From NCBI GenBank assembly GCA_965197925.1, contig CBDAOC010000001.1, forward strand, positions 1 to 64,000: a DNA stretch of 64,000 nucleotides. Direction: 5' to 3'. A program made the translations under genes and the position numbers. This document shows positions 3,732 through 32,808 of this stretch, one piece after another (the first letter of the stretch is position 1; each line of letters opens with the position of its first letter). Source of the DNA: Nitrososphaerales archaeon. GTDB taxonomy: Archaea; Thermoproteota; Nitrososphaeria; Nitrososphaerales; UBA213. The notes beneath the pieces were generated by a model. The model saw nothing but the letters and a program-made list of their open reading frames with translations, was not told the DNA's origin and did no database searches.

Positions 3732-4702
3732 GGCTCTGTAGAAACCATACCATAAATACAGTCAGTCCATGCATGTTGCAGGCTATCACTCCGAACATCA
3801 GTTCCCTGTTCTACATCTTCACCATTCTTGATGCTATACGGTCACCAGACATTTTCTTTATCACTGATAGTATGGTTTCATTCTTGTTTCTTTGGTGGTA
3901 AAGTTGGTTATAGAATCTCTTCTTCACCTGCTTCCCGTATCTTCCATATGTTCTCCATACCGGGACATCTTCATATCTGGCAGGCATGATACTGGCAGCA
4001 TCAGGTTCTTTTCGTACAAATTCATGATTTGCTTCACCATCTTCACTATCATAACCCTTGTCTGCTACAACGATGGATAGTGGCATCATGCTTGACGCTC
4101 TCTCCATGATTGGTCTGAGATCCATGGTATCGTGCTTGGGAGCCCTTCTTGTCTTCAATGAATATGCTACCTGTTCCTTCAATTCAGCACCCATCGATAG
4201 CCTGATGTACTTCTTCCTTTTTCCTGCTTTATCTGTGTAGTATGACGATGCATTGCCCGACCTGAATCCAGAAGCATCCATACCTACGAACAATTTCCTG
4301 ATCTTGGTAGGAAGCATGAATGAGGATACTATTCTGTACATCAAAGTGCCATTGATTCTTGAAGCAAACTTCTGAAGCGTTGTATAATGTGGCACCTTGT
4401 CTAACTGCATAAACATTCTGAGATAGTATGCTTCATGCAACCATTCCACAAACCTCCTGTAGCCCTTCCCCTCATACTGCCTGAATGCTGGCAGGATGAT
4501 ATGCTACCATACCGTATGGATATGATTGCTCTTCCTGTGCATGTATGGAGGAATTCTGGCCTTCATTACCACATTCAACATAGTTTTTGCAAGTTTGACG
4601 TATCTGGACTCTTTCATGCATAGCATGTATGGCACGTAACACATTGATCCAATGGTGCAATTCGATATACAATGGACTAAAATCCATGGTTTCTACAGAG
4701 CC
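3732..4702 (-). mobile_element. IS5-family (ISH1-like) element, type A; degenerate transposase
   Basis: TIR GGCTCTGTAGAAACCAT / ATGGTTTCTACAGAGCC; transposase fragment 3811-4449 with DASGF and ADKGYD motifs. Confidence 0.9.
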
Positions 4703-4834
4703 AGCTTATCCTAAAATTAACATCATAGCCTAATTGTTTATACCGAAACAGATCTAGATCTGTTCTCTCTAGCTAAATTTGTGAGAAAATCAAAGAAAAA
4801 GAGCATGCCAACCATATGACGTATACCAGACAAT

Positions 4835-6594
4835 CAACTCATCTCAAAACTAACCATTTAGACAATTTTTAGCGACCATTTAGATCCATGAATAGCGACA
4901 TCTAAAATTATTTTATGAAATTCCAAGAATTATCAGACAAACAGTGGAGTATGATGGAATCACACATACCACCACATGCAAAAACTGGCAGGCCTAGAGA
5001 TGATGATAGAAAAATCATTAACGGAATAATCCATGTTCTAACTACTGGATGCCGATGGGACGATATGCCAAAAAGATATGGTGATGATTCTACTGCAAAC
5101 AGAAGGTTAAACAAATGGCAACAAAAAGGAATCTGGAAAAAGATTCTATCACGTACTATTCACTCAGCACATAAATCTGGCAAAATTAATCTGCAAAAAA
5201 TATCAGTTGACTCTTCATCCATTCCTGATAAAAAAGGGGCAATGTAACTGGATATAATGGATTCAAGAGAATAACTAATTTATCCCAAAACTCTCCAATA
5301 CATCATGATTGATGCGATGTTAACCAACCCAAAATAATTCTCCGCTCTTCTTTCATACCTGATTGCCATTCTATGGAATCCACACTTGAGCCACGCAAAG
5401 AATCTCTCAACAACGTAACGTGTCTTGCTGTAATCGTTTTGGTTTGTTGTCTTGTTGTTCTTTGTCTTGAAATTTCTGTGTGAAATACAATCTAGAATAT
5501 TTCTGCTTTTCAAATATTCTCTAATTGCCTTAGAATCATAACCCTTGTCTGCATAAACTGATGTAATTTGTTTTATTGAATCATCATCTAGATAGTCAGA
5601 AATGTTTTCCATCACATCAATTAATCTAGTAGAGTCATGTTCATTTGCAGAACCAATAATTATTGATACTGGCAGGGAATTACAATCAACTGCAACATGT
5701 ATCTTTGTGCCTGTAATCCTCTTGAATCCATCATGTCCAATCACATTGCCTCTTTTTTGGCAGGAACAGTTGAGGAATCAACTGATATCCTCTGCAGTTG
5801 TAGATTGCCAGATTTGTATGCAGATTTTATTGCACCTGACAGAATATTTTTCCATACTTTCCTTTGCTGCCAGTTCTGTAACCTGCGATGTGCAGTTGAT
5901 TTTGAGCCATACTTTTCTGGCATCTCACGCCACCTGCATCCAGTAACTAGAACAAACATGATTCCATTTATCGTGACACGGTCATTACTCCTTGGTCTGC
6001 CTGTTCTTGCAGGTTTTGGAATGTATTTTTGCATCATCCTCCATTGCTTGTCTGTTAATTCTTGAAATTGCATGAGATGGTTCAATGACTAATTGCAAAT
6101 AGATCTAATGATCGTCATTAATTCACTAAATGATCAGTTTTGGGACAAGTTGAACAGGTACAAAAATACATGCCGCAGTAGAGAGTAACGGATTTCCAAT
6201 ATCCATACTGTTGAGTCCAGCAAATGAACATGACAGTACAAAATGCATAGATGTTACAGGATCAATTTCAGACTATCTTGATGATGATTCAATACAACAG
6301 ATAGAACCAGTTTATGCAGACAAAATGATGCAAAATACATCAGAATGTATTTGTGGTTGTGGAATAGAAATATTGCATGTTGCATCCCATACAAAATAAA
6401 TTCCAAGTTCATCTTGCAAAATAATGATTACAAACATTACAGCAAGACAAGATTTGTAGTTGAGAGATTCCTTGCATGGCTCAAGAATAGATTTCACAGA
6501 ACAAGAATCAGGTATGAAAGAACGGCAGAAAACTATCTGGCATTTGTTAATCCTGCATCATTTTTGATGTGTTGTAGGGTTTTGAGATGAGTTG
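4835..6594 (+). mobile_element. IS5-family (IS427-like, two-ORF) element, type C, nested in type B and interrupted by type D
   Basis: TIR CAACTCATCTCAAAAC / GTTTTGAGATGAGTTG; AAT target duplication; orfA 4915-5247 ends at an AAAAAAG slippery site. Confidence 0.92.
5276..6152 (-). mobile_element. IS5-family (IS427-like) element, type D, with apparently intact orfA/orfB
   Basis: AAC target duplication (5273-5275, 6153-6155); imperfect TIR; orfA 5741-6085 and orfB 5280-5744 with DKGYD and VVERFFAWL. Confidence 0.92.
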
Positions 6595-7598
6595 AATCTA
6601 TGGGTAGAGTTCAAACTAGTACTGCCGCCAGGGAAACCAGCAAGAATAGTTGGAAGGCCAGCTGTGCCATTTAGAAAAGTGTTGAATGGAATACTGTATG
6701 TATTAAGAACTGGATGTCAGTGGAAGAAGGTGCCGAAAGAATTTGGTTCTGGCTCAACTTGCCATGCAAGATTTCAGGAATGGATTGGGATAGGAGTATT
6801 CAAGAAGGTATGGAAGAGGCTGCTGGAAATATATGATGAATTGAAGAGCATGGGATGGGACTGGCAATCCATGGATAGCGTACCGAAGGCCCCATTAGGG
6901 GGAAAACGACCGGAGCAAACCCAACGGATAGAGGCAAGCTAGGTACCAAACGTCACATGCTTGTTGATAGAAGAGGAGTACCTCTCATCTGTAATTACTG
7001 GAGCAAACAAGCACGATATGAAATCAGCCTTTCCTACAATAGATAGCATTGTTGTTGATAGGCCCAAAGTTAAACAGAACATATGCATGAATAGGATATG
7101 ATTTCCCTGAGATAGAGTATGGAGTTAGGAAGGGGATATGTGGATCACATTCGTCATAAGGGTGAAGTGTTGAAAAAGAATTTATACAAAGCAAAGAGAT
7201 GGGTTGTAGAAAGAACCGCATCTTGGCATAACAGGTTCAGAAAGTTATTGGTAAGGTTCGAGAAGAGAGAGGAAAATTATCAGGCGCTAGTAGAATTTGC
7301 TAACTGCCTAATAGTGTATAGAGCGATATATTGGTAGTGTCATAAACACGTTAATGCAACTGTTTCTACTATCTACTATCTACAATACTAATAAAATCAA
7401 TAGTAAGAAAACTAAACCTGACAGTATGAACTAATATTCTTACATTCTAAATGTTATCATTTCTACCAATCATTAACTATCAGCTAGAATTTTAGGATAG
7501 GCTCTTACTCTCTAACAGTATCTTGGCAATTTGTCAGTATAAAACATTCGAAGGATAACCGCATATTTTTTATATGTACTTGCTAGAGTAACGGCAGT

Positions 7599-9731: not shown

Positions 9732-10920
9732 ATGAAAGACAAAATCAAGTCAGCGAAAAAGTCTTTCGTCACACCAATCCTTTAGCTTGTAGCAGGTGCG
9801 ATGACTGTGATATCGTCTACTGCCATTTCACCGTCTCTACCTGAAATGAGTGTAGTTTTTCAGGCTGAACAAGATGCAGAGTTTCTGGTTAGGCTGGTTC
9901 TCACTCTTCCAACGTTGTCTATTGCTATTTTTGCACCGTTAGCTGGAATTATTATTGATAAATGTGGACGAAAGAAGCTATTCGTTTTTTCTATAATATT
10001 ATACGGCGTTACAGGTGCTTCTGGATTCTTTTTAGATTCTTTATTCGAAATTTTAGTTAGTCGAGCTCTTTTTGGTATTGCAGTTGGTGGAATCATGACA
10101 ACATCCATCGCATTGATTACTGACTATTTCGAGGGACCTAAACGAGATAGAATTACGGATTGCAGGGGACATTTGCCACGTTTGGAGGTGTCATGTTTCT
10201 TGTAGCAGGAGGATTATTAGCAGACCTAAGATGGGATGCGCCGTTTTTGATCTATATTTTGGCGTTTGTGGTTTTGCCATTTGTGATGTATTTCATTTAT
10301 GAACCCAAAATATCCAGAGTCAAAGAAACTCTCAAAGGAAAATTTGTTAGGGTGAAAATAACTACCTGCTTTATCCTATAGCATTTTTGAGTATGGTAAC
10401 AATTTTCCTGATACCAGTACAGATACCGTTTCACTTGAAACAATTAACTGATACAGGCAACACAGAAGTCGGCATAGCTATAGCAATATCGTACTTGTTT
10501 GCAGGAGTTACATCACTATTCTATAAGAAAATTAAATCAAATCAAAGTTTTTGGAATATTTTCATTGTGACCTTCCTGTTGATGGGCTCAGGTTTTATGA
10601 TTATTTCCTTTGCAGAAAATTATCTGCAAGTGGTTTCGGGGTTGGTAGTAAGTGGAGTAGGACTTGGCTTACTTATCCCAACCTTGAATCTCTGTCTCAT
10701 GGCAGAAACGCCTCCAATGTACAGAGGGAGAGTGTTAGGGGGATTGCTTACTTCTCTTTACTTAGGACAGTTCTTCTCAGCTGTAGTTAGCCAGTCGCTT
10801 ATTTCAGAATTGGGAAACAGTAGTACTTTCGGATTGATTGGTTTTGTACTAATAATGTTGTCCTCTGTCTTTATTGCTATGAAAGTGAAAGAGAAATCAG
10901 AAGCAAAAGAGGTATCATGA
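9732..10920 (+). pseudogene. MFS transporter split into three ORFs
   Basis: Motif A-like GIIIDKCGRKK; fragments 9801-10205, 10160-10381 and 10387-10920 separated by a frameshift and a stop. Confidence 0.85.
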
Positions 10921-12636: not shown

Positions 12637-13685
12637 GAGCTTATCCTAAAATTAACATCATAGCCTAATTGTTTATACCGAAACAGATCTAGATCTGTCC
12701 TCTCTAGCTAAATTTGTGAGAAAATCAAAGAAAAAGAGCATGCCGACCATATGGCATATACCAGACGATCTATGGGAAGAGTTCAAACTAGTGTTGCCAC
12801 CAGAGAAACCAGCAAGAACAGTTGGAAGGCCAGCTGTGCCATTTAGAAAAGTATTGAATGGAATACTGTATGTATTAAGAACTGGATGCCAGTGGAAGAA
12901 GGTATTGAAAGAATTTGGTTCTGGTTCAACTTGCCACGCAAGATTTCAGGAATGGATTGGGATAGGAGTATTCAAGAAGGTATGGAAGAGGCTGCTGGAA
13001 ATATATGATGAATTGAAGGGTATAGGATGGGACTGGCAATCCATGGATAGCGTACCGAAGGCCCCATTAGGGGGAAAACGGCCGGAGCAAACCCAACGGA
13101 TAGAGGCAAGCTAGGTACCAAACGTCACATGCTGGTTGATAGAAGAGGAGTACCTCTCTCATCTGTAATTACTGGAGCAAATAAACACGATATGAAATCA
13201 GCCTTTCCTACAATAGATAGCATTGTTGTTGATAGGCCCAAAGTTAAACAGAACATATGCATGAATAGGATATGATACGATTTCCCTGAGATAGAGTATG
13301 GAGTTAGGAGAAGGGGATATGTGGATCACATTCGTCATAAGGGTGAAGTATTGAAAAAGAATTTGTACAAAGCAAAGAGATGGGTTGTAGAAAGAACCGC
13401 ATCTTGGCATAACAGGTTCAGAAAGTTATTGGTAAGGTTCGAAAAGAGAGAGGAAAATTATCAGGCGCTAGTAGAATTTGCTAACTGCCTAATAATATAC
13501 AGAGCGATATATTGGCAGTGTCATAAACACGTTAATGCAACTGTTTCTAGTATCTACTATCTACAATACTAATAAAATCAATAGTAAGAAAACTAAACCT
13601 GACAGTATGAACTAATATTCTTGCATTCTAAATGTTATCATTTCTACCAATCATTAACTATCAACTAGAATTTTAGGATAGGCTC
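12637..13685 (+). mobile_element. IS5-family (IS1031-like) element, type B, full length with frameshifted transposase
   Basis: TIR GAGCTTATCCTAAAATT / AATTTTAGGATAGGCTC; TTA duplication on both sides; ORFs 12716-13114 and 13321-13572. Confidence 0.93.
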
Positions 13686-13688
13686 TTA

Positions 13689-13966
13689 GTACTGCCTAAG
13701 TTCACACTAGAAATCCTATCATCAGAAACTAAAGAATTACCTACGGGATCACCCCGACCAATAACTACATTGAATATATCTTCAGGTATACCTACTTCTT
13801 CCATTATCTTAGCGAAAAGCTTCAATGATAATGGATCTGCACTGGGTGGCTTCGAATCTACAGTGCTGCCAGTAAATATTTCAGATGAATTGTGTGACGT
13901 AGGGATAAAAGGAATGGTATATCCATACGAAATTCCAACAGAAACGGGACAAAAATTAAATCCCAA
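13689..13966 (-). pseudogene. aldehyde dehydrogenase fragment truncated by IS
   Basis: KPPSADPLS...GIPEDIFNVVIGRGDPVGNSLV...GST matches the ALDH NAD-binding region. Confidence 0.65.
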
Positions 13967-14051
13967 CCCATTTTTCGGAAATAATATGAGAATAATAATT
14001 ACTCATAATAAGGCAAGTCTAAACTTGGTTAAAATTTATCCATCTAATTGA

Positions 14052-14984
14052 TCATATAATCTTTGCACCACTGCTTGGATTGCATGTAATAGCCTTACCA
14101 TTTACATAAGAGTCTTTGAATCCTTCTTCCATTGCTCTGCAGATGCTTTGAACATCCTGTCCGACTTTTGCAAACGCTATCATTGCGGGTCCGGCACCAC
14201 TGATTGTGACAGCAAGTGCTCCAGCATCCAAAGCATTTTTCTTCACATGTTCATAACCGGGAATCAAATGCAGCCTTGCGGGTTCAACTATAATGTCGTT
14301 AACAGCTTGGGAGATAAGTTCAACATCTCCAAGCATGAATCCAGCTACTACTGTACATGCATTGGCAACATTGCTAGTCAACTGTTTGAGAGAAACCTGC
14401 TCCGGTAAAACACTTCGAGCAACTTCAGTCTTCTTTTGTGGTACCTCTACATCCGGAATCACAATACAAAGCGCAAGATCTTTTGGAGAATCTATTTTTA
14501 CAATATTCAATGGCTCCGTTCTCACTATCACAAAACCACCAAGTAGTGATGCTGATACATTGTCATAATGCATTGTACCCGCAGTAGCAACCTCACCCAT
14601 CGCAGCATACTTAACCAAGGAATTCTTATCTAGATTTAGATCGAACATAGCATTAAATGCGAACGCAGCTGCAGCTGCAGATGCCGCAGAACTACCGAGT
14701 CCAAAACCGGGAGGAACACCCTTGTCCACCATGACATTCAAACCGTTATCTATATTGTATTCCTCGATCATTTTTTTGATTACCAATCCAGCTGCATTGG
14801 CTCCTACCTCCAACGGAATTGAATTTCCGTATTCTCCACTGACCTCTAATTGCAAGGCACCCATTTTTATGACTTCGAGTGTCACTGTATCGTGAAACGC
14901 ATCAAGAGCAAGACCAAAAACATCGAAACCCGGACCTATGTTCGCCGTTGATGATGGAGCGTGTGCAATTACTCTATCCTTCAC
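14052..14984 (-). CDS. thrB: homoserine kinase
   Basis: APSSTANIGPGFDVFG, PPGFGLGSSAAS, HYDNV and ISGAGP motifs. Confidence 0.95.
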   Translation of the reverse strand: MKDRVIAHAPSSTANIGPGFDVFGLALDAFHDTVTLEVIKMGALQLEVSGEYGNSIPLEVGANAAGLVIKKMIEEYNIDNGLNVMVDKGVPPGFGLGSSAASAAAAAFAFNAMFDLNLDKNSLVKYAAMGEVATAGTMHYDNVSASLLGGFVIVRTEPLNIVKIDSPKDLALCIVIPDVEVPQKKTEVARSVLPEQVSLKQLTSNVANACTVVAGFMLGDVELISQAVNDIIVEPARLHLIPGYEHVKKNALDAGALAVTISGAGPAMIAFAKVGQDVQSICRAMEEGFKDSYVNGKAITCNPSSGAKII

Positions 14985-15739
14985 TAGCCTTCAACATCCT
15001 CTCCCATTTTAAAAATTCTGGCAAGTGTAGCGTCAAGATTTATCATTCCTTCAGCGGTTGCACAAGAAATTGCAATTAACCCCATTAAAAACCCTCCCTC
15101 CTTAAGACTCTTTACCGATTCCATGCCCAGTAAATAATGTTCACTATCTTTTTCTCGTGAAATCGCATTTTGTAATAATGTAGTACTAGTTGACCAATTA
15201 AGTACTTCGTTCCTACTCTCCATAATATCAATTTTTGATAATATATTCACTTGTGGTATATGGAGTCGCAAACGTATTGACGTTGCAAGCAGAGCAATTG
15301 AAACAAAATTTGTAGGTGTGGACATCAACATTCCATCGAACAGAAATATTGAAGCTTTGTTTTCACATGAAAAATTAGAAACAAAATACGGTCCACTTTC
15401 CCTGTGTGCGAATAATTCTAGCTGTCCGGGAGTATCAATAATAACATAATCAGGATTTACTTCATCAACTCTATTTTGTATTTCACTTATTTTGGTAGCG
15501 ATCAAATCACTCGCCAATACAAGCGCTCCATTTGGCCCCAAGCCATACGTTTGCATTATCGTGTTAATATCAATATAATCTCTAATATCTACAGCTGGAT
15601 CATACGGTAAATTAACAGTTCCTGGATCTAGATTGAGTGCAATAGCATATGCATTATTGCTAGAGTACCATTCGATCAAGCGCGAAGTAAGTAATGACTT
15701 ACCAGATCCAGCCGTTCCGGTTACAAATATTGCGTACAC
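14984..15739 (-). CDS. GPN-loop GTPase
   Basis: GTAGSGKS, NLDP, LGPNG and DTPGQLE motifs. Confidence 0.95.
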   Translation of the reverse strand: MYAIFVTGTAGSGKSLLTSRLIEWYSSNNAYAIALNLDPGTVNLPYDPAVDIRDYIDINTIMQTYGLGPNGALVLASDLIATKISEIQNRVDEVNPDYVIIDTPGQLELFAHRESGPYFVSNFSCENKASIFLFDGMLMSTPTNFVSIALLATSIRLRLHIPQVNILSKIDIMESRNEVLNWSTSTTLLQNAISREKDSEHYLLGMESVKSLKEGGFLMGLIAISCATAEGMINLDATLARIFKMGEDVEG

Positions 15740-16182
15740 TTTGCTTCTAATGTTATAGAATTATTTATTCTTATAATCAATATATGTAAATACCCTTTTT
15801 TTGCGTTGATAATTATCATTATAATGAGTGTGTGAATTGACTCTCCAACTTGAATTGCTTCATTCACGATTATCGAGAGTATCAAGACGCTTTCACACCG
15901 TAGGTATATATGATATATAACGATATCAGGATTTTCATTCAATTTTTGAGTATATATTTCATTATTTATTCTACAAGGAGATGATAATCTAGCCAATCTA
16001 TTAATCATGGTGAAATCACCAATTTCAAAGATATTTATTAATTGATTATTTCTACCATCCTTTTAAGAATTCATAAAACTTATTGTAATTTCTCAACTGT
16101 AGACGTAATAGCTCGTTATTATATAATTAAAATCAAAAACTTGTTTGGAACAGATCACAATTTTTGTGTACTTGTAAAGATA

Positions 16183-16476
16183 AAGATATTACTAAACACG
16201 AAATTACTAAATGCACAAGATATTACTAAACACGAAATTACTAAATGCACAAGATATTACTAAACACGAAATTACTAAATGCACAAGATATTACTAAACA
16301 CGAAATTACTAAATGCACAAGATATTACTAAACACGAAATTACTAAATGCACAAGATATTACTAAACACGAAATTACTAAATGCACAAGATATTACTAAA
16401 CACGAAATTACTAAATGCACAAGATATTACTAAACACGAAATTACTAAATGCACAAGATATTACTAAACACGAAAT
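16183..16476. repeat. perfect tandem array of the 34-bp unit AAGATATTACTAAACACGAAATTACTAAATGCAC, 8 full copies plus 22 bp
   Basis: Units start at 16183, 16217, 16251, 16285, 16319, 16353, 16387, 16421 and 16455 (partial); 17 copies of ATTACTAAA. Confidence 0.97.
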
Positions 16477-16689
16477 GGAATATTACATTTACTTTATTTT
16501 TACACAGCATGGTGGAATTAAATAGTAATATAGGAAAGTCAATATGGGATTATATCTAATTATTCATATAACATCTTTCTATTAATTGGAACATGAACAA
16601 GAATATGGACCATAACTAACATTCAATTTATTTGTTATGACATATGCAAATGAACAATACAAATTAATAAAAATGTTAGGGGGATTCTT

Positions 16690-17253
16690 TCATAGTATTC
16701 CCAACACTGTTTCTTTTGTTTGCTTGTCCATTTCTATTCTAAAAATTAACATTGATGAGGAGATATCAAAATCAACTTTGCCATTGATAAGATCCTTTAA
16801 TACTGTTTTTATTAGTGTCTTACAATACACAGACCATTTCCATCCAAGCTCGTGCTGTATAATGCAAATTAATATTTCATTCTGATAAAATTCTTTCTCA
16901 CTGAATCCAGATGCTCTAGAACGACTCCGGAGCCAATGCAGAAATGATTGAATATCATATCGCTTTTCCATGTAAATGATCTGTGCTTTTATAATGTCTT
17001 TTGTTTGTTCCACAATTTTTTCAATATCTTCATCAGCAACTTTTAGTAGAATAGATGAAAGCATATCCTTAGTAACCGGTATGAACCCAGCTTTTTTTGC
17101 GTCTCTTTCCCAGTCGACATAATTCTGCAGGACATTATTAGCTAAAACATTAAGGCTCATTCGGTCTACTCTAGCTTGTTCCTTGAGAGTTCGTACTACC
17201 TCGTGACCGATTCTCAACGAGATCACATTTTTTTTATTATTACCGTTGGTCAT
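16690..17253 (-). CDS. N-terminal ribbon-helix-helix protein with an uncharacterised C-terminal domain (paralogue 2)
   Basis: VISLRIGHEVVRTLKEQARVDRMSLNVLANNVLQNYV is an RHH pattern; colinear with 17459-17995. Confidence 0.8.
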   Translation of the reverse strand: MTNGNNKKNVISLRIGHEVVRTLKEQARVDRMSLNVLANNVLQNYVDWERDAKKAGFIPVTKDMLSSILLKVADEDIEKIVEQTKDIIKAQIIYMEKRYDIQSFLHWLRSRSRASGFSEKEFYQNEILICIIQHELGWKWSVYCKTLIKTVLKDLINGKVDFDISSSMLIFRIEMDKQTKETVLGIL

Positions 17254-17458
17254 TATTCGATAACCTCTGTTAATCCTAACTATTGATCATTTTGTTTTGA
17301 ACTATATAAAGTTGGACTCTACTAACTAGTGATGGGAAATATTTTAAAAAATTGCGGAATGAAAAATGTGCGCAACAGCTAACGCTAAATTGTAAGTGTC
17401 AAATTGTAATACGAAATAATGATGAAGTGAGATAAAAAAGTTTGGGGTTGATTATTAA

Positions 17459-17995
17459 TCAACCGATGTCAGCTGTGAATACAACACTTTGTTCTGTTAT
17501 GTTTGGCTCTATTCGTTTCTGCAAATTATCGAAAAGAATTTTCAGGATAGTTTGTAGATATATAGAATATTTCATCCCTAGATCGTGCTGGACTATGTAG
17601 GTGTACAATGTGTCCACCATCACTCGTTTTTTTGCAAATCCAGATGCTCTACACATTTCATCTAGCCATCTTAGGAATGTTTGTAGATCAAACTTTTTTT
17701 GCATGTAGATTATTACATCGATGATATTCTTTGCAGATCTCGTAGCGACTTGCTCCAGCTGGTTCTGCTCTAACTTTCCCAATAGTGTTGCGAACAGGTC
17801 TTTAGTGATCGGCACAAAGCCAATTCTACTTGCGTCCCTCTCCCATGCTGTGTACCTCTTGAATATGTGGTTGACAAGTACGTTTAAGGAGATATTCGCA
17901 GAATCTGCTTCGCTTCTTAATTCCTCTACCACCATTTGTTCTATGCGTACAGACATTACTTCTGTCTGTCTATGCTTCCTTTCTTGGATTGTCAT
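17459..17995 (-). CDS. N-terminal ribbon-helix-helix protein with an uncharacterised C-terminal domain (paralogue 1)
   Basis: VMSVRIEQMVVEELRSEADSANISLNVLVNHIFKRY; starts 18 bp after the ftsZ stop. Confidence 0.8.
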   Translation of the reverse strand: MTIQERKHRQTEVMSVRIEQMVVEELRSEADSANISLNVLVNHIFKRYTAWERDASRIGFVPITKDLFATLLGKLEQNQLEQVATRSAKNIIDVIIYMQKKFDLQTFLRWLDEMCRASGFAKKRVMVDTLYTYIVQHDLGMKYSIYLQTILKILFDNLQKRIEPNITEQSVVFTADIG

Positions 17996-18013
17996 AGTCC
18001 CATCTCGGAAAAA

Positions 18014-19120
18014 TTAGTGAAGGAACGAGAAAAGTCCCTTCTTCTTTGGTTGATCGTGAGTCGACACAGTAACTGTCTCTTGTTTCAGCTGTTGTGCTAG
18101 CGTACTTTCGATGCCTGTTAAAACTACCATAACTCTTGCCTGCCCATTCATATTTTTGTCAACCTTCGCTCCCCACACTACTTTCACATTGTTTGGCAGT
18201 GATCGTGTAACTAACTCTCCAGCTCTTGTGACCTCATCAAGCGTTATGTCATCTCCACCAGACACGTGTACAAGTGCACCGTTTGCACGTGACATGTCCT
18301 TGATGTCAAGCAACTGTGTATCCAATGCCATACGAACAGCCATTTCTATTCTATCAACTCCATCTTTGTATCCTACTCCAATTGCTGCCAGTCCTTTATT
18401 TTCCATTATCGCAGTCAAGTCAGCTAGATCTATATTGATCAGACTCGCCGCAGTTATTGTTTCTGTAATACCTCTTATGAATTCACCAACTAATTCATTT
18501 GCTACACCTAATGCCTCTTGTATAGGTAGATTACCCGCTACCTTCGTAAGCCTGTTGTTGTCTATTGCTACTACAGTATCACAGCATCCTTGCAGCTTTT
18601 CCAACGCTTCATTCGCTAGATCAAATCTGTAACGCTCAACAGCGAAAGGCAGAGTAACCACACCTATTACAAGTCCGCCCGTGAGTTTCTTCAGCTCTTC
18701 AGCTAGTATTTGTATAGCCCCAGTTCCAGTTCCACCACCAAGACCTGCACAAAGGAAAATGATATCTGATCCTTCAATCTCTCTTTCGATCTCGTGCAGG
18801 TTTTCATATGTTGCCTGCTTTCCTTTATCAGGATAACCTCCACAACCCCTTCCTAAGCAGAGTTTCGCTCCTATCAGAATTCTTCGATCCGCTCTAGTGA
18901 TACTCAAGTGTGCTGCATCTGTGTTAACGGCAATTAATTTTCCACCAGATATTCCACGATCCTTTATCCATGACAATATGTTACTCCCAGCACCTCCAGC
19001 TCCAATTACCGTAATACTTGGTCTAGCCATTTCCACAGCAGTTCTTAATGTCTCCTGTTCCATCAGTGATGCCGGTGCCATTTGTTGTCTATTCAATTCC
19101 AATTTTCCACCTCCATACAT
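18014..19120 (-). CDS. ftsZ: FtsZ/tubulin-family GTPase
   Basis: GAGGAGSN, AVNTD, GLGGGTGTG signature, TLPFAVE, IDNNRL and T7 loop INIDLADL. Confidence 0.93.
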   Translation of the reverse strand: MYGGGKLELNRQQMAPASLMEQETLRTAVEMARPSITVIGAGGAGSNILSWIKDRGISGGKLIAVNTDAAHLSITRADRRILIGAKLCLGRGCGGYPDKGKQATYENLHEIEREIEGSDIIFLCAGLGGGTGTGAIQILAEELKKLTGGLVIGVVTLPFAVERYRFDLANEALEKLQGCCDTVVAIDNNRLTKVAGNLPIQEALGVANELVGEFIRGITETITAASLINIDLADLTAIMENKGLAAIGVGYKDGVDRIEMAVRMALDTQLLDIKDMSRANGALVHVSGGDDITLDEVTRAGELVTRSLPNNVKVVWGAKVDKNMNGQARVMVVLTGIESTLAQQLKQETVTVSTHDQPKKKGLFSFLH

Positions 19121-19547
19121 ATGATAATGATATTTCCAGTTAAGTTCTCCGTTTACAAATCAATTGGAAGTAGACAAGTAGCTAGCAATACAACTACTTT
19201 AGATCAGAATCAGATCTTATGTGATCTGAAAGATGAATATTGTAACACAATGAATACAATCATGAAAATATATTACAATAATAATTTCTGTATAATTGAC
19301 ATGCAAATTAGTGTATCGATAACATACAATGATTAGTTAGAATGATTAAACTTCCCAAATGTGTATAGGAATTTCCGACAAAGTATCAATGATAATCCAA
19401 ACTATGGAATTGTAGAAATTTCATGCATTATATACACAAAAAGCTAGGTCTCTAACAGATTAATATTGTTTGTCTAAAGTTTCTTGCGACCCTAATGAAT
19501 GATTTGATTCAAATCCTTTAAGCTTATTACCATGGAATAATGTTGTA

Positions 19548-20555
19548 ATGCCAATGAAGTGGAGGATCATTGCCATTGCTGCAAGCTTGGTACCATTGGT
19601 AATTATAGCTCTATTGCTAGATGTTGGTCCTTCTGATATTATCGCTGTCGGTATAATTCCATTTGTGCTTGCTAGTATAGCAGCATTAGCAAAAATGGTT
19701 GTGCAAGGATTACGCTTTCATTACTTTGTAAAAAGTTTTGTTGGTTCTGTTACAAGTATGAGAAGCACCATTCTAGCTAGAATAGGAAGCGAGTTCATAA
19801 CTCTAACGACGCCTGCATATACCGGCGGTGAATTTTTGAGAGTAGCTTGGTTGCATAAGAAGCGAGTTCATGCAGGTAAAGGCATGTGGGTAATTATTAT
19901 AGAAATCATAAGTGATGTAATGGTAGGGTCAACTCTATCTTACATAGCTGCCATATGGGCCTTTCTAGCCGGGAACTATGTTATTGCAACTGGGATAGTC
20001 GTGATCGTATCCCCAATCTTTACAACTTATCTAGTACTGCTAATAATGTCGTCTAAAAGGGTTTTACAGTTGCCTAAATTTACAGCCCCCCTTCTAAGGA
20101 GATTCATTGGTGACAATAGAGCAGTGAAGATGACTGATAGTGGTAACGATACTCTGAAAGTCTTGTGTGAAATGTCTAAAGAGAATTTAAATTCATCATC
20201 ATTAAGGATATTTGTAACAGGTCTTGCATTAACCTTTGTTGCTGCATGTATACATGGCTTAACCTTCATGTTTCTTGCAAACACTGAAGCAACTGTAGGA
20301 TTCATAGAATCACTTATGGCTGTATCGGCTTCAGTGGCGATTGGAACTCTGCCTATAAGTCCAGGAGGTTCTGGTCTAAGTGAGTTCGGTATTGGTGCAT
20401 ATCTATCCACTTTCGGAATTGATGCCTTGGCTTTTGGTAGCATAATTATAGCTTGGAGGATAGCTTCCTATCATGTCCAGTTGGTGATAGCCTGGATTGC
20501 TCTTATGAAGATGACTGTAAGTAAGTTGGACAGCACCACAACACCAACTCCTTAG
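19548..20555 (+). CDS. lysylphosphatidylglycerol synthase TM / flippase-like membrane protein
   Basis: TPAYTGGE, PISPGGSGLSE and WRIASY motifs; multiple TM helices. Confidence 0.85.
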   Translation: MPMKWRIIAIAASLVPLVIIALLLDVGPSDIIAVGIIPFVLASIAALAKMVVQGLRFHYFVKSFVGSVTSMRSTILARIGSEFITLTTPAYTGGEFLRVAWLHKKRVHAGKGMWVIIIEIISDVMVGSTLSYIAAIWAFLAGNYVIATGIVVIVSPIFTTYLVLLIMSSKRVLQLPKFTAPLLRRFIGDNRAVKMTDSGNDTLKVLCEMSKENLNSSSLRIFVTGLALTFVAACIHGLTFMFLANTEATVGFIESLMAVSASVAIGTLPISPGGSGLSEFGIGAYLSTFGIDALAFGSIIIAWRIASYHVQLVIAWIALMKMTVSKLDSTTTPTP

Positions 20556-20589
20556 AAACCACTTTAAATACCCTTTACGAAAATTCGAT

Positions 20590-21402
20590 ATGCAGTTCAA
20601 GGATAAAGTAGTTGTTATAACTGGAGCTTCTAGTGGAATAGGCAAACAAGCATCTCTAGATTTCGCGAAGGGGGGCGCAAATATTGTACTTGTAGCGAGA
20701 TCTAAACTAAAGATGGAGGCGATTGCGGACGAAATAAGACAGAATTATCGGATCAATACCTTGGTAGTTCCATGTGATGTATCGAAGAAGGAACAAGTGT
20801 TAGCTATGAACAAAACAATATTTGATCGATTTGATCAAGTTGATATTCTTGTTAACAATGCTGGCTTTGCAATTTTTGGCAGAGTAAGCGACCTATCAAT
20901 TGAGGAAATGGAGGAACAGATAGTAACGAACCTGCTCGGTGTGATTTATTGTACAAAACAATTCTTGCCTTCGATGCTTGCTAGAAAAATGGGTCACATC
21001 GTAAATGTTGCATCGGTAGCAAGTAGTATAGGAATTCCTGGTTTTGCATCATACTGCGCATCAAAGTTTGGAATATTGGGATTCTCACAAAGCCTTTATC
21101 ATGAATTGAAGGGAACTGGTGTTGGTGTCACTGTAGTAAGTCCCATTACAGTAAAAACAAACTTTTTCAACCATCCATCCTTCAAGAAGATAAGACTATC
21201 TGCTGTAAGCTTGAATGCTTCTAATGTATCTAAGGCGATATTACACGCTACTAATTCAAAACGTCTTGAGATAATAGTGCCATTTTATGTAAGAGGTGCT
21301 GTATGGCTCACGCAGACTTTACCGTATTTGATAAATCCTATATTAGGCTCTACATTTAGGAGATATATGAAGAAGATCGAAGAAGCAGATCTTCAGGTTT
21401 AG
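20590..21402 (+). CDS. SDR family oxidoreductase
   Basis: TGASSGIG, NNAG and YCASK motifs. Confidence 0.93.
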   Translation: MQFKDKVVVITGASSGIGKQASLDFAKGGANIVLVARSKLKMEAIADEIRQNYRINTLVVPCDVSKKEQVLAMNKTIFDRFDQVDILVNNAGFAIFGRVSDLSIEEMEEQIVTNLLGVIYCTKQFLPSMLARKMGHIVNVASVASSIGIPGFASYCASKFGILGFSQSLYHELKGTGVGVTVVSPITVKTNFFNHPSFKKIRLSAVSLNASNVSKAILHATNSKRLEIIVPFYVRGAVWLTQTLPYLINPILGSTFRRYMKKIEEADLQV

Positions 21403-21757
21403 TTGTCAGTTTAAGGAAAGCAGTCAATTCGATGTGGTTAATATGACAAAGACAGTGAGAAGTACAAAAACACTCTACGGACATAACGACATTCAATAAT
21501 ATTCATTCAAGCATTATTTTATGCATTTTGATTATGATGACGGTCGATAAATATACTCTTACCACGATTTCATATTTTCGATATAACACTGAGCAATTTC
21601 TTGAGATAATGTTGTTCAGAACAATGATTATGATAATTACAAAATCTGGTCGTTGAATTCATCTTACTTCGTATCCTGCATCTCTTTCCTTCTTAGATCA
21701 ACAAAAGGGGCAAACCAAACTAATAATACACTAATATGATGTATTTTTTTACTACGA

Positions 21758-22165
21758 TTAGTTGTCAGAATCTTCTATGTCTGAAGAGGAGGAAACTCCT
21801 GCATCAACATCTAGTATTTCAAGTGATTCTATTTCATATTGATAAATACCTTCCATATGCATATTCAAATTTTCTTTCAAATATTTACTCAGTTTGTTGC
21901 TTAACGATGCTTTTAGAATTTTCACCTTGTAAGCATAAACAAACCCTTTTAGCAAATCATCCATCTTTATTTCATTAGGAATATCAGCCTTGATGATGTG
22001 TTGTCCCGGGGGCACTTTTTCGTAGAGTTGAATGTCAGCTCGTCTTTCTTTATCATATATGTCAAGAAAGTAGCCCGTTCCTTCCCATTTAGGGACAGGT
22101 TTGAATGAGGAGTCCTTTATGGAATTAATTTCATCCTCAGCCCATTTCGGTAATTCAATGCTCAT
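21758..22165 (-). CDS. hypothetical protein
   Basis: 135-aa ORF with protein-like composition and an acidic tail. Confidence 0.7.
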   Translation of the reverse strand: MSIELPKWAEDEINSIKDSSFKPVPKWEGTGYFLDIYDKERRADIQLYEKVPPGQHIIKADIPNEIKMDDLLKGFVYAYKVKILKASLSNKLSKYLKENLNMHMEGIYQYEIESLEILDVDAGVSSSSDIEDSDN

Positions 22166-22296
22166 GTATTGAATATAGTGTGATTATTAGTTAATATGTT
22201 TTCAATCACAGAAACTAGTCCATATATAATAATATGGCCAAGAATCCATTTACATCATGACATAGGTGTCTATATACAACAAACAAAAAGTGAGAA

Positions 22297-22533
22297 TTAT
22301 TTTTTCTTGCTTAACCACCAGTCAAGATACTCATCTTGTCTGCTTTTCTTCTGTTCTGGTCTATCTTTGTCTTTTATATCGTAAATCTGCTCTCGAGTCA
22401 CATAAAGCCCACATTTCTTGCAAACGAAGTGCCTGGTATTAGGTTCATAATCCAATTCACCACTGCACTCTGGACAAGAGTTTGTTGTCAAACCGTGATG
22501 ACAATCTCTCTTACCATATAAAATCGTTCGCAC
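22297..22533 (-). CDS. small zinc-ribbon protein; true start possibly TTG at 22491
   Basis: CPEC...CKKC; C-terminal DEYLDWWLSKKK. Confidence 0.75.
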   Translation of the reverse strand: MRTILYGKRDCHHGLTTNSCPECSGELDYEPNTRHFVCKKCGLYVTREQIYDIKDKDRPEQKKSRQDEYLDWWLSKKK

Positions 22534-27946: not shown

Positions 27947-29860
27947 CTAAGTTACAAATGGATTTTTCCAGTTCAATATCAATTCAGTAATCTCAGGTCG
28001 CATCAAGAGTTCAGATGGTCCTTCTCTACTGGTGACTATCTCTTTCAACTTCGTTCCACTCACCTCCAATCTATGCTGCGGATCATGTGGACAAGTATTT
28101 TCGCTAACAGTGCTCATACATATCTTGCAATAAAAGAATGCTGGGAAGAAAACAGGTTTTATTTCAAGCTCTGGATAGTCCTTGAAAATCTCATGTGCTG
28201 CAAATGGATGGTAGTAGTTTCCAACACCAGCATGGTCTCTACCTACAATGAAGTGAGAGCAACCATAGTTCTTGCAAACTATCGCTTGCAGAATGGCTTC
28301 CTTTGGGCCAGCATATCGTATTTCTGAGTGTAGTGTCGCAAACATCAAGCTTTCCTGTGGATAATAATTGCCTATCAGTGTTTCATATGCCTTTATTATC
28401 ACTTCATCTTTGAAATCTCCGTCATTCTTTCTTCCTATCAGTGGATTGATAAATAAACCATCGAATAGGTTTAGTGCAGCCTTCTGCAACATTTCATGTG
28501 CAAGGTGTGGTATGTTTCTTGTTTGAAAACCAACAACTGTTCTCCATCCACGTTTTCTAAATTCATCCCTTGTGTGTACTGGTGAAAATCTGTGGTTCCT
28601 AAGTTCACTGTTGATTGGCCTATCTATTAAATCGATTTTGCCTCCGATTAACGTATCCTGCATTTTCATTATCCTATTGACGCCTGGATGTCCGATGTCA
28701 TCTGTCTGACAAATTGCTTTGACCATCTCCAGCTTGTTAAAATTGAAGAGTTCTTCAACATGCAATATTGCAAATATTCTGTCGAGTTCATCTCTTATAG
28801 CAACATCACCAGATTCCTTCATTTGTTTAGCAGTTTGCTCATCAGTGTCAAATACAATTGGAATAGTCCATGCTAGTCCATTTTCAAGCCTCCCTCGCTT
28901 TAGAACATTTGTAAAATCGTGAGCCAGCATGAATCCTTCTAACGGGCTAAAAATCCCATCCGCTATATTCTCTATATCGCTAACTCTATCCTCACCTACT
29001 CTTATGCTCATCAACTCATTTGCATCATTGTATGCCTTTTCTCGAGAGTTTCCAGATAGAACTCTATTTACCAGCAGACCTCCATGAGGGGAAGGAATAC
29101 CACTGCTCTCACTCAAAACAAACAACTTTTTCTTAGCATGGGTGAAGTGCATTCCACATTCCTTATCGGCGTGTTGCTCCCACCACCATCTTCCTGCTCG
29201 CAGATCCTCTCCAGGTTTTACAGCCCTTGTACAACATTCACATCCTATACTCGGATATCCTTTGTCATTCAACTTATTATAAGGTACATTATTTTCCCTT
29301 AAGTAGTCCCACACCATATCCCAGGTCCAATCAGCAATTGGATTTACTTTTATGATGTTGCCTTGGCCTGAATCTATCTCAACTTTCTGGATGTCAGCTC
29401 TGGTTGATACTTGTTCTCTCATTAAACCAGTTAACCATGCATCCAGCTTGCTTAGGGCTCTGTTCAATGGATGGACTTTCCTAATTTCACAACACAATTT
29501 TCTGTTCTCAATGCTACGATAAAAGAGGTTTAGACCACGTGTCCTAACCATATTTTCAACCTCTTCTTGATCTGGAAAATAGATATTGATTGTGATACCG
29601 TATTTGTCACGTAGGGAATCCATCAAATCGTATGTCTCTTGATTTAGTCGCCCAGTGTCTAAAGTAAAGATACCCGCATCTTTTCTTAACTTGGCTAGCA
29701 TATCTATAATTACGAGATCACCTGGATTGAAACTGGAAGCCAATGCAATTCTTGGATGAAAGGTATCCAAAGCCCACTTTAGAACCTCTTGTGCGCTCTT
29801 GTTTTCCATACCATTAGAAATTTCCTGTACTTCTTCGGTGCTCATCTTAAGCATGCTCAT
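27947..29860 (-). CDS. cysH-sat: fused APS/PAPS reductase (CysH) and sulfate adenylyltransferase (Sat)
   Basis: N-terminal LDTGRL, CCEIRKVHPL, GYPSIGC, RAGRW, ECGMH. C-terminal PHGG, FSPLEGF, FQTRNIPH, YAGPKEA, VGRDHAG. One continuous frame. Confidence 0.92.
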   Translation of the reverse strand: MSMLKMSTEEVQEISNGMENKSAQEVLKWALDTFHPRIALASSFNPGDLVIIDMLAKLRKDAGIFTLDTGRLNQETYDLMDSLRDKYGITINIYFPDQEEVENMVRTRGLNLFYRSIENRKLCCEIRKVHPLNRALSKLDAWLTGLMREQVSTRADIQKVEIDSGQGNIIKVNPIADWTWDMVWDYLRENNVPYNKLNDKGYPSIGCECCTRAVKPGEDLRAGRWWWEQHADKECGMHFTHAKKKLFVLSESSGIPSPHGGLLVNRVLSGNSREKAYNDANELMSIRVGEDRVSDIENIADGIFSPLEGFMLAHDFTNVLKRGRLENGLAWTIPIVFDTDEQTAKQMKESGDVAIRDELDRIFAILHVEELFNFNKLEMVKAICQTDDIGHPGVNRIMKMQDTLIGGKIDLIDRPINSELRNHRFSPVHTRDEFRKRGWRTVVGFQTRNIPHLAHEMLQKAALNLFDGLFINPLIGRKNDGDFKDEVIIKAYETLIGNYYPQESLMFATLHSEIRYAGPKEAILQAIVCKNYGCSHFIVGRDHAGVGNYYHPFAAHEIFKDYPELEIKPVFFPAFFYCKICMSTVSENTCPHDPQHRLEVSGTKLKEIVTSREGPSELLMRPEITELILNWKNPFVT

Positions 29861-30574: not shown

Positions 30575-31661
30575 TGAAGCATGGGCATTATTCCATATAA
30601 CAAAAATAACTTGATGCCTCTGATTGATTAACTTCCCAACATGTGCTTCAATGCCCTTAATGGTCTTCCTGTCAAGTAGTTGTAGTATACCATCAGCTGG
30701 TATAGCAATATAGAAATCAGAACGATGCTCCTAGCTTTATCAAATCCTCTAACTGGCAATGGATCTATGGTAAATACATCCTTCATATGCTCTATCAATG
30801 GCTCAACGCTTATGCTCCTCCGAGAATATACATGCTGTCCAAATTCAGATTGATAGAACTGCAGCAATGCCAGTCTATTATCTGTAGTATGCCTATACCT
30901 TTCCAATGGGAATACTGGATGCCCTCTATACCTGCTGAAATCACATAACTTGTGATCATCATATCCTTCATCTCCTACAACATACCTCACCATTCCTAAA
31001 GGCAATGAAGATGTTATGCTTTCATACATCTTGTTATCAGTAATGTTAGCTGTTGTGAAATCAGCTGATAATGGAACTATCAATGAACCTGTACTAGATG
31101 CTAGATGCAGTTTGTATCCGAATACCCGTCCCTTAGTTCTGCTGTAGCCCCATCGAGCATCTGTATCTATACCTGAACGTGGTACTTCATTCTTCATGTT
31201 TGATCTATGCCATACATGTCCCTTTGCTTTCAACAATGAACTGTCAACGGATACTATGGATGAGTCTACCAACCCATCTTTTATGAAGAGCACACCCATA
31301 ACATCTATCCTTGATCTTATGTCAATTGATACGGCCTTGACCTTCTGTCGAATGTTCTTCTGTCTGGCAACCTATCAAGACCACATGCCTTCATTACCTT
31401 CCTGTTGTATGGCATGTCTATCAAAAAGTTTCATGCAAAGCATTGTTGCTTGGTATTCTTATCCATACTCTAACGATGAAGCATCTCACCATAACTGTAG
31501 GAGAATAGTAGAATGGTCTACTTTTCCTATTAGGTTTTGTCCGAATCACGTCAATCAAAAATAATATACGAAGAAGTATCGAGTCTGAGCTAAACACATT
31601 ACCAATGAAAAATGGAACCTGATCTTATCGTTTCGACCGGCTTAATTATGCCCAAGCCTCA
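30575..31661 (-). mobile_element. IS element, type F (DDE transposase; family uncertain), degenerate
   Basis: TIR TGAGGCTTGGGCATAATT with a degenerate left copy; VDSS, GDEGYD and SVEP motifs; near-identical to 58343-59435. Confidence 0.88.
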
Positions 31662-31722
31662 GGTAATTACTAATTATGATTCGTTGGATAATGCTTATGA
31701 TCAATACGGGCGTTATTACGTT

Positions 31723-32808
31723 GTGACTCTGAAAGGGAAGAGGAACCATTACAACATCAAATTACTGAAAGGTTATGGAGTAAGCATAAGATTGAAAGAA
31801 CATAGAGTAGTTTTGAATGATGGTAAAAATCCTTTCACAGAAGAACAGGAAAGAGAAGAATGGTTCGTTACAAAGCTTCCATACGAGAAGATAGTAATCT
31901 CAGGTAAGGGTTATGTTTCTACTGAGGCTATTAAATTATTAGCTAAGAAAAACATCAACGTTATTTTGACGGATACTTATGGAAATTTAATCTCAAATAT
32001 GAATAATGTGATGTCAAGTAATACTGCGACTAACTATAGGATAGGCCAGTATGATACATTTAGAGATCCTGATAAAAGATTGTATTTGCAAAAGCAACTT
32101 CTCTCTGCAAAGTTGCATAGTCAGATCGGATTTTTTAAATCGTTAGACAAAGAAGAACTTGAAAAAGCTATAGAACAATTAATAGATTATAAAGAATCAA
32201 TTAATAGCTACAAAGATAGACGAAAGTTTCTTAGTATAGAATCAAGGTTTGGACACCTCTATTTTCGTAATTACTCCAAGTTGTTTCATTCCAAGTATGG
32301 ATTCGATTCAAGGCACGGTGGGGGGTTGGTTATGTCTAATAGGTATGCATCAGATGTGATTAACGCACTTCTCAATTATGGGTACTCAGTATTAGCTGGA
32401 GAAATTGCCAAGTTTGTGAATGGTTTAGGATTAGACCCTTACTTTGGGTTTTATCATAAGATGCATACTTCCTTTCAAGCGTTGGTTTATGATTTGATTG
32501 AACCTTACCGTTGGATGGTGGAATATTCTGTTTACAAGATGGCTGCTCCTACAAATCATGAACATCGCATAAAGAAAAGGGAATATGCATGGACTAGGGA
32601 AGGTAAGATAATTCTTGATACGAATTTGATTAGAGGATTTTTGGAGTTGTTATCTCGGAAGTTAGATTCAGAGAGACCCTATTTATCAAAACATGGATTG
32701 AGGAGAGACGATGGTCTAGCAATGTGTCAAGAGATTACTATTGCCAAGATTAACATACAGAATTTGGCTGAGTATTGTGTGGGGAAAAGAAATTACATTA
32801 ATTTCTGA
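31723..32808 (+). CDS. cas1: stand-alone Cas1 (casposase-like, thaumarchaeal casposon type)
   Basis: LKGYGVSI, STEAIKLL, SIESRFG (E), DVINALLNYGYS, GLDPYFGFYH (H), LVYDLIEPYR (D/E). Start placed at GTG 31723 because the upstream extension lies in the IS end. Confidence 0.88.
   Translation: MTLKGKRNHYNIKLLKGYGVSIRLKEHRVVLNDGKNPFTEEQEREEWFVTKLPYEKIVISGKGYVSTEAIKLLAKKNINVILTDTYGNLISNMNNVMSSNTATNYRIGQYDTFRDPDKRLYLQKQLLSAKLHSQIGFFKSLDKEELEKAIEQLIDYKESINSYKDRRKFLSIESRFGHLYFRNYSKLFHSKYGFDSRHGGGLVMSNRYASDVINALLNYGYSVLAGEIAKFVNGLGLDPYFGFYHKMHTSFQALVYDLIEPYRWMVEYSVYKMAAPTNHEHRIKKREYAWTREGKIILDTNLIRGFLELLSRKLDSERPYLSKHGLRRDDGLAMCQEITIAKINIQNLAEYCVGKRNYINF

Follow-up and report, generated by a model that had tools for sequence, protein, structure and literature searches.

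TubZRC systems are carried on plasmids or phages, with the genes and sites in the order repeats-tubR-tubZ, and their DNA-binding protein TubR is of the winged-helix type. ParR, ParG, omega and the archaeal SegB have a ribbon-helix-helix (RHH) fold and bind arrays of short direct repeats. Members of the RHH (CopG/Arc/MetJ) superfamily form dimers whose antiparallel beta-ribbon reads the major groove. NikR is a one-component archaeal regulator in which an RHH is combined with a ligand-binding domain. Here we describe a chromosomal cassette consisting of ftsZ, two paralogous genes for RHH-type proteins (P1 and P2) and a nearby 34-bp tandem array. It lies in 64,000 nucleotides of DNA from a Nitrososphaerales archaeon (contig CBDAOC010000001.1, positions 1 to 64,000), in the following called the window. 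The closest described arrangement is found in haloarchaea, where, according to the available text of the study, cdrL and cdrS are located beside ftsZ2 and CdrS, an RHH protein of 55 aa, is co-transcribed with ftsZ2 and activates it (PMC7439475). CdrL, in the same text, consists of an RHH and a double zinc ribbon and binds the operon promoter (PMC7439475). Furthermore, the RHH protein aCcr1 of Sulfolobales is cited in the accessible part of a review as acting on cell-cycle genes (PMC7617429).

Our preferred reading, to which we give about an even chance, is that P1 and P2 are sensor-type RHH transcription regulators, that P1 is co-transcribed with ftsZ, and that the array is a recent minisatellite. 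All three genes are encoded on the reverse (-) strand: ftsZ at 18014-19120 (368 aa; identified from the ORF list, Pfam and TIGR00065), P1 at 17459-17995 (178 aa) and P2 at 16690-17253 (187 aa). The spacer from the ftsZ stop to the P1 start is 18 nt long (17996..18013), and P1 and P2 are separated by 205 nt (17254..17458). The array has no strand and occupies 16183-16476, inside a stretch of 950 nt (15740-16689) that is poor in open reading frames (ORFs) and has 25-30% G+C. The original prediction, made from the sequence, had placed ftsZ, the two RHH genes and the array at these positions, the array in AT-rich non-coding DNA. The ORF list and Tandem Repeats Finder (TRF) agree with these coordinates. 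A 95-aa ORF at 15721-16008 has no Pfam match, the 950-nt stretch contains no convincing ORF, and there is no Rfam match across 13000-22500.

Judged by its sequence, the window GTPase is a canonical FtsZ and not a TubZ. It matches the Pfam families Tubulin (PF00091, 1.8e-36) and FtsZ_C (PF12327, 2.7e-25), and scores 310.9 bits on the NCBI FtsZ equivalog model TIGR00065, the cutoff of which is 295.2. All 49 PDB sequences matching at E <= 1e-20 are named FtsZ, none TubZ, and FtsZ homolog 1 of Methanocaldococcus jannaschii aligns with 272 bits. The GGGTGTG box and the NIDLAD T7 loop (N-x-D-x-A-D) are both intact. Among the 120 nearest FtsZ homologues, which are 59-96% identical where aligned and include several titled Nitrososphaera or Nitrososphaerales, GGGTGTG is present in 117 and the N.D.AD loop in all. 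By contrast, the FtsZ of Nitrosopumilus maritimus has AGKAGSA in place of the tubulin signature and did not polymerise in yeast, according to the available text of PMC3684127. The difference between that degenerate protein and the canonical one of the window suggests that some Nitrososphaeria lineages probably carry an active FtsZ alongside the Cdv system. Thaumarchaeota/Nitrososphaeria divide with Cdv proteins, and the window FtsZ is canonical in all tested motifs. If P1 and P2 regulate ftsZ, experiments on them could show under which conditions the lineage makes use of it.

P1 and P2 are paralogues, 37% identical across 167 residues (E 2e-43), and have the same two-domain build. Taken alone, neither gave a match above the Pfam or NCBIfam thresholds, the best being RHH_4 (E 0.071, for P1) and BrnA (E 0.1), and searches against PDB sequences with single sequences and profiles gave nothing below E 0.6. 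At the level of the family, sequence matches identify the N-terminus as a ribbon-helix-helix. We scanned 115 members, namely 113 of 150 listed representatives and the two window proteins, against Pfam at E <= 0.1. The matches were to CopG_antitoxin (66 members, best E 8e-06), HicB (44), DUF6364 (30), BrnA (14), RHH_4 (10), RHH_1 (9) and Arc (4). In the same 115 members the C-terminal part is covered by no Pfam family.

AlphaFold2 (AF2) models of the P1 monomer had a pLDDT of 85.7 with 31 sequences, and a pLDDT of 95.7 and a pTM of 0.85 with 115 sequences. They begin with an extended segment followed by two helices at residues 20-32 and 37-55, predicted to be the RHH helices, so that the RHH-type N-terminus would span residues ~12-55. 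The C-terminal alpha/beta domain (~65-176) is modelled with helices at 65-73, 77-99 and 104-118, a hairpin at 121-136, a helix at 141-157 and a strand at 170-176. According to these models P1 and P2 would be composed of an RHH and a compact domain of ~115 residues, which is possibly sensor-like. Foldseek searches of the PDB with two P1 models gave de novo designed proteins as top matches. The natural matches of the C-terminal domain were H-NOX, Bet3/TRAPP subunits and BcsD, with TM scores of 0.43-0.47 only, and none of these folds was assigned to it. In a protein atlas, residues 60-178 of P1 matched only unnamed Nitrososphaerota clusters (0.88-0.89), and leads to HicB, AF_0136_C and RHH_1 clusters (~0.75) were below the reliable level. 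The thaumarchaeal response-regulator output domains NitrOD1-5 were also considered, and the available text of PMC5847659 gives no basis for equating them with the P1/P2 family. One family member, P0076 (335 aa, family match at 146-321), has a match to a receiver domain at its N-terminus (E 0.0024, below the cutoff). This hints that the RHH-plus-domain module can act as a two-component output.

For comparison, a scan of species genomes with the P1 alignment found relatives in 215 stretches, and the best 80 of these were used as loci (numbered with the prefix L). All but three are titled Nitrososphaeria, the exceptions being L012 (Thermoproteota), L032 ("archaeon") and L068 (Chitinophagaceae). 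Only L001, L002 and L003 contain proteins with more than 50% identity to P1. These three carry orthologues of both P1 and P2, and in all three the order ftsZ-P1-P2 is kept, with identities to the window of 78-83% for FtsZ, 55-81% for P1 and 62-79% for P2.

The flanks of the cassette, named from Pfam matches, are the same in L001 and L002 as in the window. On the ftsZ side these are genes for an LPG_synthase_TM protein (19548-20555) and a short-chain dehydrogenase (SDR; 20590-21402), both on the forward (+) strand. On the array side they are genes for a GPN-loop GTPase (PF03029; 14984-15739) and a GHMP-family kinase (14052-14984), both on the reverse (-) strand. In L003, which is titled Candidatus Nitrosomirales, the flanks are different and encode a class II aminoacyl-tRNA synthetase, a PAPS reductase and a glycosyltransferase. 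The order of the three genes is kept there although the flanks have changed, which indicates that the triple stayed together through rearrangement of both. We found no description of a link between ftsZ and RHH genes in ammonia oxidisers in the literature searched, as far as its available text goes, and FtsZ, Cdv and "cell division" are mentioned nowhere in the main text of the Nitrosomirales paper.

The spacer between ftsZ and P1 is 18 nt in the window, L001 and L002 and 21 nt in L003. This leaves no room for a separate P1 promoter, and we infer that ftsZ and P1 are co-transcribed as a bicistronic unit, with P2 separately promoted. Alignment of the P1-P2 spacers (window 17254-17458; L001:6684-6881; L002:10535-10739; L003:10538-10878) revealed several conserved elements. 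A T-rich tract after the P1 stop is present in all four cassettes and reads AAACTTTTTTATCT in the three close genomes; it may be a terminator. All four have an identical TATA-like CTTTATATA ahead of P2, a putative promoter element. The window, L001 and L002 also share the 11-mer TAGCGTTAGCT, located ~75 nt upstream of the CTTTATATA of P2; it is a candidate operator, as yet unproven. The 7-mer TAGCGTT also occurs in the P1-P2 spacer of all four.

In a quick maximum-likelihood tree built from 85 rows of the family, with long branches flagged, there are separate clades for the P1 orthologues (4 rows, SH-aLRT 97), the P2 orthologues (4 rows, SH-aLRT 99) and a third paralogue (4 rows, SH-aLRT 97). 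Together they form one clade of 12 rows (SH-aLRT 96), suggesting that the duplications took place within the cassette lineage, before L003 split off. In the same tree the family member of L068 is sister to one from Nitrosarchaeum (SH-aLRT 99), and those of L012 (Thermoproteota) and L010 (Nitrososphaera sp.) fall among Nitrosotenuis rows. For these three contigs mis-binning or loose labelling is probable.

The family to which P1 and P2 belong is large. A profile search with the P1 alignment gave 2056 cluster representatives at E <= 1e-3, of which 1088 reach E <= 1e-10; almost all are 165-200 aa long. A word-indexed search gave 48 clusters. FtsZ-family ORFs were searched for in the 80 loci by tblastn with the window FtsZ, and with a profile HMM of 38 FtsZ sequences on stop-to-stop segments of at least 80 aa. 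They were present only in L001, L002 and L003. In the other 77 loci the family gene is single, and the DNA fetched holds no FtsZ-family ORF. Since 68 of these 77 include 1.5 kb or more upstream of the family gene, and 50 extend for 3 kb or more to either side of it, the missing FtsZ is mostly not an edge effect. The original prediction had named a scattered paralogue family with no conserved link to ftsZ as an outcome that would count against it. This describes the family as a whole but not the subclades of P1 and P2, which are found beside ftsZ in each of the three relatives that carry them.

Clustering of the neighbours within 6 kb revealed CBS-domain proteins in 59 loci, Hsp20 in 38, Usp in 34, a small helix-turn-helix (HTH) protein in 28 and PII/Amt in 22-25. 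The CBS-domain gene often immediately precedes the family gene in the same orientation. In loci outside the cassette lineage (L008-L080) it is often a gene with four CBS domains that the family gene directly follows, for example at L013:9077-9928 and L077:9060-9917. These surroundings may represent a conserved regulatory neighbourhood for stress or nitrogen. The cassette-bearing genomes themselves carry further paralogues, located beside eIF2-gamma and a PIN protein (L004, L007) or beside a SnoaL-like gene and his genes (L021, L049). A family that is scattered, multi-copy and diverse in context is what would be expected of one-component transcription regulators, and to judge by its sequences the P1/P2 family is regulator-like. 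A large Nitrososphaeria regulator family without a matching model in the Pfam and NCBIfam copies used is now characterised.

The array is described by TRF as a repeat with a period of 34 and 8.6 copies, with 100% matches, no indels and a score of 588. A distance of 213 nt separates it from the stop codon of P2. Each 34-bp unit holds two copies of a sub-site, ATTACTAAA, spaced alternately by 15 and 19 bp. The window contains 19 copies of ATTACTAAA, against 1.29 expected by chance; 17 are within the array, and the other two, at 35400 and 53267, are consistent with the chance expectation. TRF found no other array of at least five copies in the rest of the window or in the 1,157,001 bases of the 80 loci, and the rarity of the array is far beyond chance.

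None of the 80 loci contains the 34-bp unit, and the three orthologous cassettes have no counterpart of the array. In L001 and L002 the counterpart spacers (729 and 523 nt) align poorly with that of the window and hold no homologous unit; similarity is confined to the final 35 nt, which adjoin the GPN gene. Two-copy duplications of at least 30 bp occur in four of the 80 loci (L003, L013, L052 and L070), being 98% matched in L070 and perfect in the others. The one in L003 (L003:11660-11733) is a 37-bp x 2.0 duplication of unrelated sequence, ~200 nt downstream of the P2 orthologue. We also considered the spacer as a mobile element or miniature inverted-repeat transposable element (MITE). This was rejected, as the window holds no second copy, the loci show homology over those 35 nt only, and the inverted repeats are weak. 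The array ends cleanly.

The identity of the copies, together with their absence from the relatives, points to a very recent expansion. From its sequence we take the array for a minisatellite of recent date that is specific to this genome, and neither for a conserved centromere nor for a conserved part of the cassette. Replication slippage in AT-rich DNA is suggested as its simplest origin, and the array would be neutral. The part of the genome in which it lies is rich in fragments of insertion sequences (IS) and in broken genes. In the synteny check that the original prediction had proposed, the order ftsZ-P1-P2 was recovered in all three relatives and the adjacent repeats in none.

The mechanism that we consider most likely would be as follows. 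P1 and P2, as lineage-specific paralogues in a family of one-component type, would bind DNA through the N-terminal RHH, and the C-terminal alpha/beta domain probably senses a ligand or a partner. P1 would be made together with FtsZ from the bicistronic unit and P2 from its own TATA-like promoter. Dimers of P1, P2 or both would then occupy operators within the cassette's promoters and adjust the expression of ftsZ to a signal. The array would be a recent slippage expansion in the AT-rich spacer of one genome. An RHH-regulated ftsZ had been the second option of the original prediction, and it fits the evidence better than partition does: it is supported by the linkage in 3 of 3 relatives, the short spacer and the cdrL-cdrS-ftsZ2 precedent, the regulation itself being our reading of the arrangement.

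Several points weigh against this proposal. The roles given to the P1/P2 family are derived from sequences and predicted models alone, P1 itself is below every curated RHH threshold, and with TM scores as low as those of the C-terminal fold matches "sensor" is a guess. The linkage comes from only three relatives, of which L001 and L002 are near to the window, and could be simple inheritance. No k-mer of at least 7 nt is common to the upstream regions of ftsZ and P2 across the four cassettes, which means that no common operator is visible. With regard to the array, 17 direct-repeat sites 213 nt from an RHH gene resemble the plasmid centromeres that are bound by RHH proteins. The absence of the array refers to cassettes with FtsZ 78-83% and P1 55-81% identical, and in the nearest genome known FtsZ is 96% and P1 93% identical. 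Finally, the duplication in L003 is in the same relative place as the array; the coincidence is notable but weak as evidence.

The rival that survives best is that the genes are neighbours by descent only, P1 and P2 regulating other genes, for example in stress or metabolism, with no functional tie to ftsZ. We regard this as possible though doubtful. The heterogeneous contexts of the family, from CBS, Hsp20, Usp and PII/Amt to eIF2-gamma/PIN and his operon/SnoaL, would be expected if it were true, as would the lack of a motif common to the ftsZ and P2 upstream regions and the presence of the cassette in only three comparison genomes. It accounts less well for an ftsZ-P1 spacer too short for a separate promoter in 4 of 4 cassettes and for the triple in L003, intact though both flanks changed.

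Alternatively, the array could be a recently gained functional element that offers sites to P2, P1 or another factor, serving titration, silencing of the GPN-GTPase promoter or as a nascent positioning site. Its position between the 3' end of P2 and the promoter of the GPN-loop GTPase gene would suit such a role, as would the absence of arrays of at least five copies from 1.16 Mb of related loci and the rest of the window. We consider it improbable: the sub-site has no copy in any cassette promoter, no k-mer of the array of at least 8 nt occurs in the upstream regions of ftsZ or P2, the copies at 35400 and 53267 are no more than chance provides, and there is no conservation to argue for selection.

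A further reading, for this Nitrosomirales-like lineage of ammonia-oxidising archaea, makes the canonical FtsZ no relic but the motor of a separate, regulated cytoskeleton. P1 would be a bifunctional adaptor, with its C-terminal domain on FtsZ and its RHH on chromosomal DNA, and the whole a device for chromosome positioning or nucleoid occlusion in a cell dividing by Cdv/ESCRT-III, for which the array would at most be a recent extra landing pad. The window FtsZ ends in KKKGLFSFLH, a basic and then hydrophobic tail encoded by its last ~12 codons (18014-18050), and this peptide is an example of what the C-terminal domain of P1 might bind. In the FtsZ alignment such tails are short and clade-specific (KKKGLFSFLH, K(R/K)FLG(V/M)F, KRKWWG, IKxG), and from their sequence could be membrane-binding or partner-binding peptides. 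The clade-specific tails keep the adaptor reading alive, at a low probability, and we think it quite improbable.

The leading claim of the original prediction, a segregation or positioning module in which FtsZ filaments are coupled through P1/P2 adaptors to a centromere-like 34-bp array in the manner of TubZRC or of ParR/ParG, is in our view very unlikely. In its favour are 17 regularly spaced direct sub-sites beside two RHH genes and the gene of a polymer-forming GTPase, the intact GTPase motifs of FtsZ and the conserved linkage of the three genes. A repeat array in orthologous cassettes had been set beforehand as a test, and none of the three carries one; the array or a related unit is missing from all 80 loci. 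Moreover, the copies are 100% identical, hence young, the GTPase is a canonical chromosomal FtsZ whose 49 PDB matches are all FtsZ, the cassette is in a syntenic housekeeping context and not on a mobile element, and in 77 of the 80 loci the family of the candidate adaptors occurs without a link to ftsZ. These data do not support a TubZRC-like centromere module on the chromosome.

A replication origin, with the AT-rich spacer containing repeats that bind an initiator, can be dismissed as barely credible: 950 nt of non-coding DNA with 25-30% G+C and repeats would fit, but none of the 71 window ORFs of at least 90 aa matches Orc1/Cdc6 or another initiator family, the cumulative GC skew turns at ~19.1-19.3 kb, where gene orientation switches, and away from the array, conservation of the spacer does not extend to L001 or L002, and archaeal origins have inverted ORB-like pairs around an unwinding element, which these direct repeats in tandem lack.

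The rest of the window shows much gene decay. ORFs for IS4/5-family transposases are found at 3811-6942, 12716-13572, 30628-31299, 33240-33581, 47788-48117, 49942-50307 and 58392-59066, several of them split into DUF4096 and DDE pieces. There is also an MFS transporter gene split into two parts (9801-10205 and 10387-10920) and a fragment of an aldehyde-dehydrogenase gene (13673-13966). The statement of the original prediction that most accessory genes are broken is borne out by these, in part only. A stand-alone Cas1 gene (31612-32808, + strand; PF01867, 8.8e-48) has IS4/5 genes or fragments on either side (30628-31299 and 33240-33581). No other cas genes were seen among the window ORFs of at least 90 aa, and this one may be what is left of a casposon. 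At 2026-3165 (+ strand) an ORF carries the AbiTii domain (PF18864, 3.5e-21) of an abortive-infection-type defence family. A 637-aa ORF at 27947-29860 (- strand) is a fusion of PAPS reductase, PUA-like and ATP-sulfurylase domains; the ORF near ftsZ in L003, in contrast, has a PAPS reductase only (243 aa).

Compared with the systems described at the outset, the locus resembles TubZRC in having the gene of a tubulin-superfamily GTPase next to genes of DNA-binding proteins, with a direct-repeat array nearby. It differs in its GTPase, a canonical FtsZ that exceeds the TIGR00065 cutoff, and in its DNA-binding proteins, which are of the RHH type. Furthermore, the GTPase gene comes first and the repeats are downstream, the context is chromosomal and syntenic, with the flanks shared by L001 and L002, and the repeats are conserved in none of the three orthologous cassettes. 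With ParR, ParG, omega and SegB the locus shares the RHH fold and a direct-repeat array nearby. Unlike the situation with ParR, ParG and SegB, no gene for a ParM/ParA/SegA-type NTPase adjoins P1 or P2, the neighbours being ftsZ and the genes for the GPN-loop GTPase, GHMP kinase, LPG_synthase_TM protein and SDR. P1 and P2 are also much larger, with an added domain, and the array is private to one genome. The likeness to NikR-type regulators is in the N-terminal RHH and the compact C-terminal alpha/beta domain, and in a family that is large, multi-copy and diverse in context. The difference from NikR and from H-NOX or Bet3/V4R-like sensors is that the C-terminal domain has no Pfam or NCBIfam model and resembles H-NOX, Bet3 and BcsD only at the TM scores given above.

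The haloarchaeal cdrL-cdrS-ftsZ2 locus, as far as it is described in the available text (PMC7439475), has several features in common with the cassette. In both, two genes for RHH proteins are directly beside an ftsZ gene. In haloarchaea one of them shares the transcription unit of ftsZ2, as P1 may do with ftsZ here, to judge by the 18-21-nt spacer. CdrL, like P1 and P2, has a second, C-terminal domain. Transcriptional control of a tubulin homologue would be a further likeness, proposed here from the arrangement and not from sequence homology to CdrS. The window RHH genes are downstream of ftsZ, whereas the haloarchaeal ones are upstream. P1 and P2 have ~180 aa and an alpha/beta domain, in contrast to CdrS with its 55 aa and RHH only and to CdrL with its double zinc ribbon. 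Moreover, P1 and P2 are each other's paralogues within a Nitrososphaeria family, and the window FtsZ is nearest, among solved structures, to M. jannaschii FtsZ homolog 1. RHH regulators beside ftsZ are thus already known from haloarchaea, while the architecture of P1 and P2, the gene order and the lineage are different. If our preferred reading of P1 and P2 as regulators of ftsZ is true, the theme of RHH regulators beside ftsZ would extend from Euryarchaeota to the ammonia oxidisers, with a different protein architecture.

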